Virus genome (UHGV): UHGV-0117107
Length of the DNA stretch: 17,495 nucleotides
Source: a virus
Strand: one strand, 5' to 3'
In this document: positions 1 to 16,480 of the stretch, in pieces
How positions within the stretch are numbered: the first letter of the stretch is position 1
Layout: the number at the start of each line of letters is the position of its first letter
Notes under the pieces: generated by a model
Database searches by the model: none
What the model saw: the letters and a program-made list of their open reading frames with translations, nothing else
Told to the model about the DNA's origin: nothing
Program-made: the position numbers and the translations under genes

Positions 1-2429
1 CCCGCTATTTTTAGCAATGTTCCGGCTTTAAGATTCTGTTGCCATGATTCCAAACTTCCCTTAACGCCATCAAGTATTTTTTTAACGTTATCTAAGAAAC
101 TTATTTTTTCGAATGGATCAGATAATCCTTTAATAAAGTTTCTTATGGCTAGTAATATTCCAGCAAACAATCCGCTGTTTAATACTTCGAAAATATCGCC
201 TTTACCAAAGGCATCGGCTATCATATTACCTATATCGGAAAAAGCTTCTCCGATGGCCGCGCCAACCGACTTTATAGTGTTCCATAGACCGGAAAAGAAG
301 CCAAGAAAACCTTGAAGTGTAGGAGAAATCTTAAAACTCTCAATAAGTGAGCGTCCAAACTCTGCTATTTTTGAAATCCCGTTGCTAAGAAATCCAACAA
401 TTTTATCAACTGCGTCGCCAAACAGATTTCCTTCTACTATGGAGTCTCTCACATTCGAGATAAAATCTCCAAAAGAACTCGTTGCATCCAGTATTCCTCC
501 ACCAAGTCCGGTGAAGTTTCCAATAATATCTAGAGCGCCTTTTCCAACAGCTTTAAAAGCCTCTATAACAATATCGATAGCGGAAAAGATTCCTTTAAAT
601 GTAGATTTTATTTTAGATGCAGCGCCTTCACTTACTTTTAAAGTATCAGTGAAAGCTTTGAATCTATCAATCATACTTACTACTTGGTCGACTGTAGTAG
701 GTGGAAATATCTCTCTAAAAGCTTCTTTTATCGGTTTTATTATATCTCCAAGGAATTTGAATATATTTTTCAAACCCTCTATAATTTTTTCTCTACCGCC
801 AAGCTCGGTTATTCCATCGATAAGACCATCTATGTTGTCTTTTAATTTATTCGTAGATTCGTTTGCTTCATTTAGCGCTTTTAATGTAGCGTCATCAACG
901 ATACCTGTTATTTCTAAATCGTTAGCTTCCTGAAAAGCTTTAATAGCTGACTCTGTGGCACTTCCGAAAATTCCATCAGCACCAGAATCGCCAATATCAT
1001 AGTTAAGGCTTTGTAATGCTTTTTGTACTTTTGTTACGTCGTCTCCTGTATTACCTTTCGATAAACCGGCTTCGACTCCACTTAAATCTACAAGTTCGCC
1101 TTTTAATCCGCTAACAGCTTCTTTTAAAATATCAGAAGATATGGCACCAGATTGAAAAGCTTTTTCTAGAGAACCATATTTTTTTATGATCTCGTCCATA
1201 TTAACGCCATGGTCCTCAGCAATCGATCTAACTTTTTCCTCAAAAGTATCGGTTTCTACACCAGCTTCATTTATTTTTTTTACAAGCTTATCCCAGTTAG
1301 AAGACATCGCGCCTTCCAATAATTCGTTACGAGATTTCGCTGATGATTCAACCATCTTTCCAATGGTATCTGAAATTCCAGTGAACAATTCTTTGGAGTC
1401 TTCAAAATCACCGACAAGTATTCTCCAAGTTTGACCCCATCCAGATTGGAGAGATTCTTTTACCGTATCTATCAGCTGTGTGAATGTTTTTACTTTTGTA
1501 GCAGCGTCTTCAGCGTCCTTCGCTAAAGCCATAATATCGTTTGCTTGAGATTCGCTATAACCTTGGGCAATAAGATCGGCCTTACTATATGCGCCAGACA
1601 ATTGGTTAAGAGTTTCAGTTAATACCTCGGTCGTTAACCATTCACCTTTTGTTAGGCTTTCTCTAAAGCTGCCATATGTATCAATAGCTTGTTTAGCGCC
1701 TGTTCCCAAAAGTTCAGACGTTCTAACAAGTGCGTCCTGAAATACCTTACCACCCATACCGGCATTAACAACTGAGTTCCAGTCCATAAGACTAACTTTA
1801 CCTGCCGCCAATGCCTGAGAAAGCTGATACATCGCAGTAGATGCCTGTTGAGAAGTTGATCCAGAAACTGCGGCCAAGTTCGCAATACCTTTAATAGCAT
1901 TAACTGAGGTATCAAGTTTTACACCAGCTGCTGTAAACGTACCGATATTACGAGTCATTTCCGTAAAATTGTAAATCGTCTTATCGGCATATGTATTTAG
2001 CTCATCTAAAGCCTTATTTACAATATCAACATTAGTGCCTTCCTGCCTTGTATTGGATAGAATTGTCTGAATAGCACCAATCTGAGTTTCGTATTCTTGG
2101 AAACCGCTTTTAACCGGATCTATAGTTAATGCTGATATCATACGTTTACCAGTGTTAACAGCCTGGTTAGTGATGTTTGCTAAAGCAGTTACACCAGCGA
2201 CCTGTAGTGCTGAAAATTTAGCCTGAACTGTCTCTATACCACTGCTCATTCCTGCAAAGCTAACACCTTTAGCAGCCTTACCGACATTCTCCAACCCTTT
2301 GGAGGCACCAGATAGATTTAACTTTTGTTTGAGCTTATCGAGAGTTGACATACTGGTTGCGACTCCGCTCTCAAACTGCTTATTGTCGAACCGCATCTCC
2401 AAGACTCTGTTGTCAATAGTCGTACTCAT
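1..2429 (-). CDS. Phage tail tape measure protein, 5' portion only (first ~809 codons; gene continues past window start); carries an internal peptidoglycan-binding-like domain
   Basis: ATG at 2427-2429 (minus) preceded by GGAGGGAGG; reading frame stays open to position 1 (checked at both ends and mid-gene), which explains its absence from the ORF track. Translation starts MSTTIDNRVLEMRFDNKQFESG and contains TIYNFTEMTRNIGTFTAAGVKLDTSVNAIKG and LAAGKVSLMDWNSVVNAGMGG, motifs recalled as typical of siphovirus tape measure proteins. The start overlaps the upstream stop as ATGA. Confidence 0.85.
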   Translation of the reverse strand, partial: MSTTIDNRVLEMRFDNKQFESGVATSMSTLDKLKQKLNLSGASKGLENVGKAAKGVSFAGMSSGIETVQAKFSALQVAGVTALANITNQAVNTGKRMISALTIDPVKSGFQEYETQIGAIQTILSNTRQEGTNVDIVNKALDELNTYADKTIYNFTEMTRNIGTFTAAGVKLDTSVNAIKGIANLAAVSGSTSQQASTAMYQLSQALAAGKVSLMDWNSVVNAGMGGKVFQDALVRTSELLGTGAKQAIDTYGSFRESLTKGEWLTTEVLTETLNQLSGAYSKADLIAQGYSESQANDIMALAKDAEDAATKVKTFTQLIDTVKESLQSGWGQTWRILVGDFEDSKELFTGISDTIGKMVESSAKSRNELLEGAMSSNWDKLVKKINEAGVETDTFEEKVRSIAEDHGVNMDEIIKKYGSLEKAFQSGAISSDILKEAVSGLKGELVDLSGVEAGLSKGNTGDDVTKVQKALQSLNYDIGDSGADGIFGSATESAIKAFQEANDLEITGIVDDATLKALNEANESTNKLKDNIDGLIDGITELGGREKIIEGLKNIFKFLGDIIKPIKEAFREIFPPTTVDQVVSMIDRFKAFTDTLKVSEGAASKIKSTFKGIFSAIDIVIEAFKAVGKGALDIIGNFTGLGGGILDATSSFGDFISNVRDSIVEGNLFGDAVDKIVGFLSNGISKIAEFGRSLIESFKISPTLQGFLGFFSGLWNTIKSVGAAIGEAFSDIGNMIADAFGKGDIFEVLNSGLFAGILLAIRNFIKGLSDPFEKISFLDNVKKILDGVKGSLESWQQNLKAGTLLKIA

Positions 2430-2803
2430 ATCTTAGTAACCTCCCTCCAGGCCTCTTCTGCCATTTTGTCAAAAATAGGCTGAATCGCAGGATTGATATA
2501 ATCTCTCCCTTGAACCCAGCCTCCAGTACCAGTCCCATGACCATATTGCAAAATAATAGCGATTGGTACACCTTTATTAATGTTAGAGTTTGTAAAAGTA
2601 ATCTTTGCTGATCCGGATGTATTCTCAATTTCGTATCCCCACGATTTAGCAGTCAATCCAGATTCTACAGGAGTAGCAGACATAAGAGCAGCCACCCCTT
2701 CCCGACCATATTTGTCGAGTACGCTGAGCTTTGCATTCCCTTTAAGTTTCTCAAAATATCGAGTAACTTTAGAGAAGTCTCCCTTATGTCTGAAACTAAT
2801 CAT
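2426..2803 (-). CDS. HK97 gp10-family-like head-tail joining/tail component protein (125 aa)
   Basis: ORF track 2426..2803; ATG preceded by AAAGGAGAAAGATCAAA. Translation has PVESGLTAKSW and LQYGHGTGTGGWVQGRDYINPAIQPIFDKMAEEAW, resembling the PVDTG...EFGT...P-(F/Y)-L-x-P-A pattern recalled for the HK97 gp10 family. TGA stop overlaps the tape measure ATG. Confidence 0.6.
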   Translation of the reverse strand: MISFRHKGDFSKVTRYFEKLKGNAKLSVLDKYGREGVAALMSATPVESGLTAKSWGYEIENTSGSAKITFTNSNINKGVPIAIILQYGHGTGTGGWVQGRDYINPAIQPIFDKMAEEAWREVTKI

Positions 2804-2818
2804 TTTGATCTTTCTCCT

Positions 2819-15576: not shown

Positions 15577-15579
15577 AAC

Positions 15580-16125
15580 TTACTTACCACTTAGCGCTTT
15601 GATGGCTAAAGCAATGCTTAATGCCGACCCGGTTACTGCTAAAACATCACCGGTGGTTTCTAGCATTCTACTAGCATACTCGCGTCCTTTCGTGGTTTTT
15701 TGAGGAGCAAACATATCATTATATTGTTTCTCCAAAAGAGCTCTATTAATCTGATCACGCATTTCTTTATCGGTCATGTTGCTTAAGTCCATCTTTTGTT
15801 TCGGATTATTTCTGATAGACTTATCGGTCATGGTCTTTATATTACGGCTCAGTCCAGCAGTAGCATCGGTCAAAGATTTGGTTCTTTCCAAGTCTTCTTT
15901 AACATATCGTCTAGCATCTGCTATGTTGTCAGTTCGACCGTTCTTTTTAGACTGCTTATAATAAGTACCAGTAGACTCATCATACTTATTAAATTCTTTT
16001 TCTCTAGAGTCTCTTTCATATCTCTTCTGACCTTTTTCAGTAAGAGTACCATCCTTGTTCTGGTATCTTCTTACTCCCCATTTCATGCCTTTAATTCCAT
16101 GATGATAGAGTTCATTATTGTCCAT
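15580..16125 (-). CDS. Paralog A of tandem family (181 aa): conserved N-terminal motif, basic middle region, C-terminal hydrophobic helix; function unknown
   Basis: ATG preceded by AAAGGAGGTAATTCAAA. N-terminus MDNNELYHHGIKGMKWGVRRYQNKDGTLT; C-terminus GDVLAVTGSALSIALAIKALSGK is hydrophobic (possible membrane anchor or amphipathic helix). Confidence 0.7.
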   Translation of the reverse strand: MDNNELYHHGIKGMKWGVRRYQNKDGTLTEKGQKRYERDSREKEFNKYDESTGTYYKQSKKNGRTDNIADARRYVKEDLERTKSLTDATAGLSRNIKTMTDKSIRNNPKQKMDLSNMTDKEMRDQINRALLEKQYNDMFAPQKTTKGREYASRMLETTGDVLAVTGSALSIALAIKALSGK

Positions 16126-16480
16126 TTTGAATTACCTCCTTTCCAGTTTGTTCTGCCTCCACATTAAGTCTCCATTCAAGCTCGTTGATCATCTGTTTCA
16201 TGGCTTCCATTACAGCAGAGCTAAGAGGAGGATCGAAAATAAGTCTAACCTTTAGATACATATAGGTTTTTACAGCCTCGAAGTTTTTGTTATCGGTCGG
16301 AAGAAATTCATCCCATGTAGTAAACTTATCCGTGATATGAAATCCATTACTAGGACCAACTCCCAACTGACTAAGTATCATGAATACAGAATTGATATGC
16401 ATGATGATATCAGAATCAAAGTGCTCATAATCTTCTGTTATACCGAGCATCTTTTTAACTGATGTAAGTATACTTTCCAA
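16115..16480 (-). CDS. Hypothetical protein (121 aa), TTG start; weak resemblance to gp6-like head-tail connector proteins
   Basis: Start codon is TTG (16478-16480) preceded by AAGGAGGTG with ~8-nt spacing; stop overlaps the start of paralog A by 11 nt. N-terminal helix SVKKMLGITEDYEHFDSDIIMHINSV loosely matches the L-R-(V/I)-D-x-D-D...L-I pattern recalled for gp6-like connectors; weak assignment. Confidence 0.45.
   Translation of the reverse strand: MESILTSVKKMLGITEDYEHFDSDIIMHINSVFMILSQLGVGPSNGFHITDKFTTWDEFLPTDNKNFEAVKTYMYLKVRLIFDPPLSSAVMEAMKQMINELEWRLNVEAEQTGKEVIQNGQ

Follow-up and report, generated by a model that had tools for sequence, protein, structure and literature searches.

HK97 and SPP1 encode the four proteins of the 'type 1' neck module (adaptor, Ad1; head closure, Hc1; Ne1; tail terminator, Tc1; Lopes et al., 2014, PMC4362835) in one block between the genes for the capsid and the major tail protein (MTP). 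UHGV-0117107 is a contig from a human-gut metagenome (ENA ERZ1755062), and the whole stretch of 17,495 nucleotides analysed here is termed the window. Its order is non-canonical as compared with HK97 and SPP1: only two small genes lie in that interval, a gp10-like gene lies directly upstream of the tape measure protein (TMP) gene, and a gp6-like gene lies upstream of a cluster of paralogues. The first-pass annotation, which pointed this out, proposed that the structural module of this phage had been rearranged if the family calls hold, and that the rearrangement was possibly linked to insertion of the lysin. Where, then, is the neck set encoded, and is its layout a recent event in this phage? 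The ORFs concerned were recovered on the minus strand where that annotation had placed them. We put at about 0.8 the probability of the following reading taken as a whole: the window carries the typical morphogenesis module of a known phage supercluster, with a dispersed neck set in an ancient order, the lysin is unrelated to this order, and Ne1 and TMP would act as partners.

A complete neck set at three separate places

The features of the window, in their reading direction, are:

16904–17248, minus strand: conserved protein of 114 aa, ahead of the HNH gene
16498–16941, minus strand: packaging-associated HNH endonuclease, 147 aa, from annotated homologues
16115–16480, minus strand: head-to-tail adaptor (Ad) by predicted fold, 121 aa, upstream of the large terminase gene; PF24829, phrog_4247
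12762–16125, minus strand: four DUF7211 paralogues (181, 352, 378 and 190 aa) in the adaptor–TerL variable slot; PF23847
10985–12718, minus strand: terminase large subunit (TerL); PF20441, E 1.7e-31, and PF03354
8749–10020, minus strand: portal protein; PF04860, E 6.5e-22
6654–8399, minus strand: prohead protease fused to major capsid protein; PF04586 and PF05065, phrog_3270, E 8.9e-216
6312–6629, minus strand: predicted head-closure protein or stopper (Hc), 105 aa, DUF7253; PF23911, E 2.1e-39, and Foldseek
6014–6334, minus strand: predicted tail terminator (Tc/TrP), 106 aa; phrog_78 'tail terminator', E 2.6e-8
5334–5999, minus strand: MTP; phrog_2645, E 3e-106
5282–5309, minus strand: intrinsic-terminator-like hairpin (12 bp, then T8), separating MTP from the tail genes downstream
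4824–5237, minus strand: tail assembly chaperone (TAC), 137 aa; PF23803 Phage_TAC_17, E 1.6e-37
4234–4794, minus strand: p186, conserved protein of 186 aa, role unknown; phrog_4338, E 7.8e-75
2819–4237, minus strand: endolysin (GH25, CHAP and two CW_7 repeats), cargo of the p186–Ne1 slot; PF01183, PF05257, PF08230
2426–2803, minus strand: predicted tail completion protein or Neck1 (Ne1; HK97 gp10-like), 125 aa; phrog_5, E 1e-13; ATGA overlap with the TMP start
1–2429, minus strand: N-terminal 809 codons of TMP, open from the ATG at 2429 to the end of the window

The 654-nt interval from the stop of the protease–capsid gene (6654) to the start of the MTP gene (5999) holds just two ORFs, those of the 105-aa and 106-aa proteins, as had been noted. 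The 106-aa protein shares its phrog_78 match with HK97 gp11 (2.1e-6) and shows 39% identity to FP_oengus gp74, which is annotated Tc1; its gene abuts the MTP gene directly upstream, here and in all 62 loci compared. Profile and position alike place it with the tail terminators (lambda gpU, SPP1 gp17, HK97 gp11), as judged from sequence. The contig's public record has no gene call for this ORF.

The 105-aa protein left the known Hc1 profiles phrog_25 and phrog_501 unmatched, hitting only PF23911 (DUF7253) and phrog_4270 (unknown function); in controls, the Hc proteins of HK97 and SPP1 did match phrog_25. Its AlphaFold2 model is a beta-barrel (pLDDT 83.5) whose best Foldseek matches are neck stopper chains: the NF5 neck (9m6x_S), Pam3 (8hdr_A, TM 0.63), SaPI1 (9mu3_C), the T1 stopper (9l0e_A), SPP1 gp16 (7z4w/2kca), lambda (8k37_M) and XkdH (3f3b). 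Match probability was 0.97–1.0 for nine of the ten best and 0.35–0.93 for later ones, with modest E-values (7e-3 to 0.3). The modelled fold is thus the beta-barrel of the stoppers SPP1 gp16, lambda gpFII and HK97 Hc1.

The 121-aa protein matches PF24829 (Phage_connect_2) at E 2.2e-42 (144 bits; cut-off 24.3) and phrog_4247 at E 2.6e-52, so that the gp6-like call made at first pass holds. PF05135 (gp6-like, Phage_connect_1) gave no match at E ≤ 0.1, and Foldseek by itself found no significant match for the model. The protein has in common with solved adaptors a small helical fold, and by this predicted fold it is a gp6-like adaptor. Its homologues 1706 orf6 and ReqiPepy6 gp012 are annotated 'virion structural protein'. 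The gene is neither directly downstream of the capsid gene nor adjacent to Hc within the distance that Virfam tolerates; it lies ∼8 kb from Hc and upstream of TerL, here and in 30 of 30 relatives.

For the 125-aa protein, the gp10-like call was borne out by the PHROG profile. Residues 1–124 align with positions 90–207 of phrog_5 ('tail completion or Neck1'), the region also matched by HK97 gp10 (3.4e-35, positions 88–214) and SPP1 gp16.1 (3.2e-21, positions 99–207); homologues from FP_oengus (gp78, 4.8e-10) and Gordon (gp25, 5.4e-12) match the same profile. An hhalign comparison with an alignment of HK97 gp10 and SPP1 gp16.1 gave E 3.3e-4 over 74 colinear columns. Relatives are labelled 'HK97 gp10 family' or 'type I neck protein' in the sources, and FP_oengus gp78, upstream of TMP, is annotated Ne1/HK97 gp10 family. 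PF04883 (HK97-gp10_like) matched neither the 125-aa protein at E ≤ 0.1 nor its FP_oengus, ReqiPepy6, 1706 and Gordon homologues at E ≤ 1; the controls HK97 gp10 (4.7e-12) and SPP1 gp16.1 (1.1e-11) did match. NCBIfam returned nothing, and a PDB profile search with the family found no relative at E ≤ 10. The gene does not occupy the position between Hc and Tc; it follows MTP, TAC, p186 and the lysin, and its place is universal in the lineage.

Pfam and PHROG profiles therefore assign the 121-, 125- and 106-aa proteins to neck families, and the 105-aa protein to DUF7253; as sequence-based family calls, all four are far beyond chance. The displaced genes might nevertheless not be neck genes, the 125-aa protein being a chaperone associated with TMP, or a minor tail protein, with no more than a remote resemblance to gp10, and the 121-aa protein a packaging accessory with an adaptor-like helical fold, with the virion making do with Hc and Tc or using unidentified proteins. 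The unmatched PF04883 and PF05135, the lack of a significant match for the 121-aa model in Foldseek alone, and several SEA-PHAGES records in which the homologue of the 125-aa protein is called 'minor tail protein' or 'hypothetical' are in keeping with this, as is phage T5, whose nominal tail completion protein is located elsewhere in the virion and not in the neck (PMC11784142). We regard this alternative as improbable.

Since the two genes of the capsid–tail interval are Hc and Tc, the four-protein neck set is complete but dispersed. The first-pass annotation was right about the displaced adaptor and Ne1 genes but overlooked the identity of the two that remained in place. We conclude that the phage encodes the full 'type 1' neck set of four proteins, at three separate places. 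The window thus has the same four protein classes as HK97 and SPP1, with Hc and Tc likewise just upstream of MTP; unlike in those phages, the adaptor gene is ∼8 kb upstream, before TerL, and Ne1 is ∼3 kb downstream, after MTP, TAC, p186 and the lysin. The families also differ, with PF24829 in place of PF05135, DUF7253 in place of phrog_25, and no match to PF04883.

The dispersed order is fixed across the lineage

Synteny was surveyed in 84 loci, comprising 80 from IMG/VR and the annotated genomes of FP_oengus, ReqiPepy6, 1706 and Arthrobacter phage Gordon. In 84 of 84 the order was adaptor, variable slot, TerL, portal, protease–capsid, Hc, Tc, MTP, TAC, p186, variable slot, Ne1, TMP, and the four annotated genomes have the order of the window. 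The adaptor gene preceded TerL in 30 of 30 loci and was in no case located between capsid and MTP; the succession MCP, Hc, Tc, MTP held in 62 of 62. By tblastn, 243 phage records contained an adaptor homologue and 237 a homologue of Ne1, the host genera being the same for both; in these records the adaptor is 11–22 kb upstream of Ne1, so that the order extends to ∼240 sequenced phages of Actinobacteria and Firmicutes. As the order is invariant across the lineage, it predates the split of the Actinobacteria and Firmicutes branches.

This lineage is the siphovirus supercluster described by Koert et al. (10.1101/842583), which includes Lactococcus phage 1706 (Fremauxvirus), Faecalibacterium phage FP_oengus (Oengusvirus), Rhodococcus phages ReqiPepy6 and ReqiPoco6, Arthrobacter clusters AM, AU and AW, Gordonia DJ, Streptomyces BI and Microbacterium EL. 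These authors listed as its conserved region HNH endonuclease, head-to-tail connector, terminase large subunit, portal and capsid maturation protease, and this five-gene block is present in the window in that order, at 36–80% identity to lineage members. The correspondence is gene for gene, from small protein, HNH, adaptor, slot and TerL through to slot, Ne1 and TMP, the Ne1–TMP overlap included, with identities from 28–36% (1706 Tc, Ne1 and adaptor) up to ∼80% (TerL). The same protease–capsid fusion is noted for Arthrobacter clusters AM and AU (PMC5513430). Within this known lineage the window phage is unexceptional. It differs from the others in its gut origin, its closest named relatives being Blautia-associated, in that a nucleotide-level comparison matched only 10% of its DNA to any deposited phage, and in its cargo: the four DUF7211 paralogues (PF23847 matches an N-terminal 25-aa motif in 4/4), a collagen-like gene, a PF21825 gene, and the GH25–CHAP–CW_7 lysin in the Ne1 slot.

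The adaptor gene sits among the packaging genes, in the series 114-aa protein, HNH, adaptor, variable slot, TerL. The 147-aa protein is 40–59% identical to FP_oengus gp59, ReqiPepy6 gp009, 1706 orf5 and Gordon gp2, all annotated as HNH endonucleases, and had no Pfam match at E ≤ 0.1. The 114-aa protein had no match in Pfam or NCBIfam; FP_oengus, ReqiPepy6, 1706 (orf4) and several viral contigs each encode a homologue at the corresponding place, and judging by this position it may be a small terminase subunit. Lambda gene W (Nu1-A-W-B) is likewise a head-completion or adaptor gene that lies with those for packaging and portal and does not follow the capsid gene. W, however, lies between TerL (A) and portal (B), whereas the adaptor gene of the window is upstream of TerL, and no sequence similarity between the two was detected. 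Lambda Z (Ne1), unlike Ne1 of the window, stays in the canonical FII-Z-U block.

The lysin is cargo of a variable slot

The p186 gene, present in 77 loci, is always the last core gene ahead of the variable slot. We considered p186 as a frameshift extension of TAC and rejected this, because it has its own Shine–Dalgarno sequence and an in-frame stop codon just upstream. The gap between p186 and Ne1 ranges from 7 nt to 6.3 kb and is empty in 11 of the 77 loci, namely 1706, FP_oengus and nine others; in the remaining loci it is occupied by Phage_lysozyme, Amidase_2, Amidase_3, ELLD or GH25 lysins, holins, a Tad2-like gene, LysB or tail fibre genes. The content of the adaptor–TerL slot also varies among relatives.

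A recent local rearrangement of the structural module together with lysin insertion would fit the position of the lysin directly upstream of the displaced gp10-like gene, in what is clearly a site of repeated insertion. Against it stand the identical order in every locus surveyed, across two bacterial phyla and with or without a lysin, the 13 kb that separate the displaced adaptor gene from the lysin, and the unremarkable GC content of the lysin region. The synteny survey refutes this proposal, to which we attach almost no credence. The layout is instead the fixed, ancient order of a large known phage group, and the lysin is cargo of one of two hypervariable slots (p186–Ne1 and adaptor–TerL), unrelated to the displacement of the neck genes.

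Ne1 is kept beside the tape measure gene

The 125-aa ORF ends in ATATGA, its stop overlapping the ATG of the TMP ORF, which runs off the window; in sister contigs TMP is 2515 aa long, with PF20155 (TMP_3) and PF01471 domains. TMP follows Ne1 directly in 82 of 84 loci, the remaining two ending there, and the overlap is 4 nt (NTGA) in 81 of 84 (8 nt in 1706), although the proteins have diverged to 32–50% identity. Cargo has been inserted repeatedly just upstream of Ne1 and never between Ne1 and TMP. Both genes also lie downstream of a conserved hairpin. Of 58 MTP–TAC intervals tabulated, 51 were distinct, 20–400 nt long and contained a T-run, and in all 51 a hairpin (−11 to −25 kcal/mol) stands immediately ahead of the T-run, although the stem sequences differ.

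In the neck structure of 80alpha/SaPI1, a beta-hairpin of the tail completion protein forms a sheet with three TMP N-termini inside the tail (Kizziah et al., 10.1101/2024.12.10.627806; PDB 9mu2). That protein, gp51, belongs to the same functional class as Ne1, with lambda gpZ, SPP1 gp16.1 and HK97 gp10. Its gene is canonically placed, however: ORF51 is flanked by the head–tail joining and terminator genes and is distant from TMP (ORF56), whereas Ne1 of the window overlaps TMP. Solved structures include none from the 1706/Oengus lineage.

The order could be real and ancient and yet a frozen accident, in which head and tail modules joined at unusual break-points and the adjacency of Ne1 and TMP means nothing functionally. 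Both displaced genes do flank hypervariable slots, that is, recombination-prone junctions, and canonical phages function well with Ne1 distant from TMP. An accident does not readily account for an overlap retained through such protein divergence, nor for insertions that repeatedly spare the Ne1–TMP junction, and the 80alpha structure offers a direct physical reason for co-expression. We consider an accident a possibility of some substance, though an unlikely one.

On the reading that we prefer, a joint function of the two products may be what keeps Ne1 beside the TMP gene. Extrapolating from 80alpha, one tail completion protein would bind the N-termini of three TMP copies. The NTGA overlap may couple translation of Ne1 and TMP, and the hairpin after MTP would put both genes in a low-expression part of the operon, matching low copy number. 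We tentatively suggest, as a doubtful but specific proposal, that the tail completion protein of this lineage, rather than joining the neck late, is an obligate TMP partner made from the same coupled message and loaded on the emerging TMP N-terminus, and that their complex forms as tail assembly begins. If this is true, NTGA coupling in two phyla would be comparative-genomic evidence that contact between tail completion protein and TMP, so far seen once, in 80alpha, is general and selected.

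Gene content of the window

In HK97 and SPP1 a canonical block of adaptor (Ad), head closure (Hc), Neck1/tail completion (Ne1, gp10-like) and tail terminator (Tc) genes lies between the capsid and major tail protein (MTP) genes, and this has been described as the usual order (Lopes et al., PMC4362835); in the window, by contrast, two small genes are found there. All credible genes of the window (ENA contig ERZ1755062 NODE_792) are carried by the minus strand.

Features of the window
17248-16904, minus: 114-aa protein, first in transcription order
16941-16498, minus: 147-aa HNH endonuclease homologue
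16480-16115, minus: 121-aa protein (adaptor), upstream of the paralogue cluster and TerL
16125-12762, minus: four paralogues with DUF7211 N-terminal motif
12718-10985, minus: terminase large subunit (TerL)
10650-10895, minus: 81-aa PF21825 protein, TerL-portal interval
10035-10631, minus: 198-aa collagen-repeat protein, TerL-portal interval
10020-8749, minus: portal
8439-8774, minus: poorly supported 88/111-aa ORF, portal-capsid interval
8399-6654, minus: prohead-protease/major-capsid fusion
6629-6312, minus: 105-aa protein (Hc)
6334-6014, minus: 106-aa protein (Tc)
5999-5334, minus: MTP
5237-4824, minus: tail assembly chaperone (TAC)
4794-4234, minus: 186-aa conserved protein (p186)
4237-2819, minus: GH25-CHAP-CW_7 endolysin
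2803-2426, minus: 125-aa protein (Ne1)
from 2429, leaving the window, minus: tape measure protein (TMP) ORF, N-terminal 809 codons

The first-pass annotation had placed two small genes alone in the capsid-MTP interval, which measures 654 nt, and both coordinates and description are correct. The Tc gene (6014-6334; L089, 6493-6804) starts with TTG and shares 23 nt with the Hc gene. Public annotation of this contig and its sister contigs omits it, leaving an apparent 312-nt gap. The complete TMP, encoded in longer sister contigs, measures 2515 aa and includes a PG_binding_1 domain; this length implies a very long tail. The sister contigs L087 and L088, whose Ne1 is identical to that of the window, have a longer protease-capsid fusion (645 versus 581 aa) and lysin (522 versus 472 aa), indicating indel variation among very close relatives.

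The 81-aa protein matches PF21825 (E 2.4e-20; crAss001_48-related, 'Sequestin' in newer precomputed Pfam labels) and has a counterpart in only some relatives; the 198-aa protein, with collagen triple-helix (GxY) repeats, is missing from most. Most relatives have the portal and capsid genes side by side. The ORF at 8439-8774 encodes 111 aa from a GTG, or 88 aa from an internal ATG in the public record; it was considered as a hidden neck protein and rejected, being without a family match and absent from most relatives. Megablast against deposited phages gave a sole match, in TerL (76.6% identity). A sigma-70 promoter scan performed at chance (49 found, 49.2 expected) and was not used.

The four tandem DUF7211 paralogues (181, 352, 378 and 190 aa; 12762-16125) have in common only an N-terminal motif of ~25 aa, YHHGVKGMKWGVRRY, and their region has the lowest GC in the window (0.335-0.37). 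Relatives differ in copy number and in where the genes sit, which is either the adaptor-TerL or the TerL-portal interval. One homologue, gp019 of ReqiPepy6, carries an annotation of similarity to the structural protein gp07 of 1706. The paralogues may be internal proteins or ejection proteins that are targeted to the capsid.

Assignment of the neck proteins

Neither the 125-aa protein nor four diverse homologues matched PF04883 in Pfam, while the HK97 gp10 and SPP1 gp16.1 controls did; an NCBIfam search gave no meaningful match for any small window protein. The phrog_5 profile ('tail completion or Neck1') does detect the 125-aa protein (E 1e-13), over a region that HK97 gp10 (3e-35) and SPP1 gp16.1 (3e-21) match too. 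Comparison by hhalign of low-diversity alignments (Neff 1.5) with single HK97 or SPP1 proteins was underpowered, and the result improved once diverse lineage members were added: the diverse family alignment is colinear with HK97 gp10 and SPP1 gp16.1 (E 3e-4), and its TPVxSG motif pairs with their APVxxG motif. Relatives 82% identical to the 125-aa protein are named 'HK97 gp10 family' or 'type I neck protein' in databases, and the gene preceding TMP in the FP_oengus record is labelled Ne1/HK97 gp10 family. On these sequence comparisons we accept the protein as gp10/Ne1 at the superfamily level.

The AF2 model of the 105-aa DUF7253 protein (pLDDT 83.5) finds as its best Foldseek matches neck stopper or head-closure chains, from NF5, Pam3, SaPI1, T1, SPP1 (gp16), lambda and XkdH. 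Probabilities are 0.97-1.0 for nine of the ten best and 0.35-0.93 for later ones, with modest E-values. The 106-aa protein matches phrog_78, 'tail terminator' (E 2.6e-8), as does HK97 gp11, and shares 39% identity with FP_oengus gp74, which carries the annotation Tc1. PDB HMM searches gave no solved relative, whether with family alignments of the 121- and 125-aa proteins or with the major capsid protein, MTP and portal. Adaptor homologues are labelled 'virion structural protein' in their database records.

Profile searches thus uphold the family calls made in the first pass, that for the 125-aa protein at the superfamily level though PF04883 is negative. The gp6-like 121-aa gene, its family call confirmed, does precede the paralogue cluster and TerL; the gp10-like gene, supported by phrog_5, lies directly upstream of TMP, with which it shares a stop/start overlap. 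Because these calls hold, the predicted neck set of four is complete but spread over three locations.

Gene order across the lineage

The first-pass annotation had read this arrangement as a rearrangement of the structural module of this phage, possibly together with insertion of the lysin. The first part is wrong. All window proteins were mapped on 80 IMG/VR loci, found via the Ne1 family, and on four genomes, and the same order was found across these 84 loci. Ne1 is followed directly by TMP in 82, the remaining two ending at Ne1; the adaptor lies upstream of TerL in all 30 loci long enough to show it, and in no locus between capsid and MTP; capsid, Hc, Tc and MTP follow in that order in 62 of 62. 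Each gene is single-copy in each surveyed locus. The four genomes, those of FP_oengus, ReqiPepy6, 1706 and Arthrobacter phage Gordon, show this order in their annotation as well. Among deposited phages, tblastn found adaptor homologues in 243 and Ne1 homologues in 237, from the same host genera (Arthrobacter, Gordonia, Streptomyces, Lactococcus, Curtobacterium, Rhodococcus, Microbacterium and Faecalibacterium); in the records common to both listings, and in FP_oengus, the adaptor is 11-22 kb upstream of Ne1.

Nor does the lysin account for the position of Ne1. The p186-Ne1 interval is a cargo slot, as short as 7 nt and as long as 6.3 kb; 11 of 77 loci, 1706 and FP_oengus among them, have under 60 nt there and count as empty, with the position of Ne1 unchanged. 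Sequence similar to the lysin of the window occupies it in 37 loci; other cargo includes Phage_lysozyme, Amidase_2(+SH3), Amidase_3 and ELLD endolysins, a Hol44-type holin (in L025 with two membrane-like ORFs without Pfam match) and a Tad2-like gene, while ReqiPepy6 has LysB there and Gordon tail fibre genes. The Tad2-like (Thoeris anti-defence 2) gene encodes 90 aa (L063, 9713-9985; PF11195, E 1e-25) beside an Amidase_3 lysin. Cargo enters upstream of Ne1, never between Ne1 and TMP, so the lysin is independent of Ne1 displacement. A recent rearrangement linked to the lysin is refuted by this synteny and is extremely improbable. The adaptor-TerL interval is a second variable slot, filled by the DUF7211 paralogues in the window and by different genes in other phages. 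The adaptor is immediately preceded by lysis genes in ReqiPepy6 and Gordon.

The window phage belongs to the Actinobacteria/Firmicutes supercluster of Koert et al. (10.1101/842583), with its conserved HNH endonuclease, head-to-tail connector, terminase large subunit, portal and capsid maturation protease; clusters AM and AU have a protease-capsid fusion and a lysin upstream of TerL (Klyczek et al., PMC5513430). In published accounts of the lineage we found no discussion of neck-gene dispersal as such. We conclude that the window adds a gut phage to a known and widespread lineage, one whose morphogenesis layout is fixed and non-canonical.

Proposed coupling of Ne1 and TMP

The Ne1 gene ends AAG ATA TGA, and the TMP ATG is formed by the last base of ATA and the TG of the stop. 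In 81 of 84 loci the Ne1 stop and the first start codon of the TMP ORF share 4 nt (NTGA); in 1706 the overlap is 8 nt. Upstream, the MTP gene is followed by a strong terminator-like hairpin (12 bp then T8, 5309-5282), at a place equivalent to that of annotated terminators in HK97. Of 58 tabulated MTP-TAC intervals, 51 distinct ones are 20-400 nt long with a T-run, and in every one the T-run is immediately preceded by a stable hairpin (-11 to -25 kcal/mol). The position of this hairpin (5282-5309 in the window) is conserved across L001-L086; its stem sequence differs widely between relatives, in what look like compensatory changes. A reading of p186 as a -1 frameshift extension of TAC, in the manner of lambda G-T, was dropped because a stop codon closely precedes p186 in its frame and the gene has a Shine-Dalgarno sequence of its own.

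We propose that Ne1 and TMP would be a translationally coupled pair in an attenuated, low-copy part of the late operon, with roughly one copy of Ne1 and three of TMP per virion, as against hundreds for MTP. The pair may be kept coupled and attenuated because the two proteins form a complex; in 80alpha/SaPI1 one tail completion protein lies inside the top of the tail (10.1101/2024.12.10.627806). Work on T5 shows that nominal tail completion proteins need not all act alike (PMC11784142). The place of the adaptor among the packaging genes, paralleled by lambda W between A and B, would fit action on the portal right after packaging. Both readings of function are plausible. That the gene order is instead a neutral frozen accident seems less likely: the overlap is conserved despite heavy cargo turnover adjoining it, which argues for selection.

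Implications

These results do not overturn current understanding, and their interest is modest, lying in annotation, the cargo slot and the genomic support for a partnership of tail completion protein and TMP. Distance-based neck typing (Virfam-style) will miss the adaptor and Hc genes in this lineage, which is very abundant in gut and soil. Lysins, holins and an anti-defence gene replace one another at the p186-Ne1 junction, which helps in mining for lysins and in interpreting mosaicism. The Ne1/TMP gene overlap gives independent genomic support for a partnership so far drawn from one cryo-EM structure, and 1706 and Gordon are tractable phages in which it may be tested.
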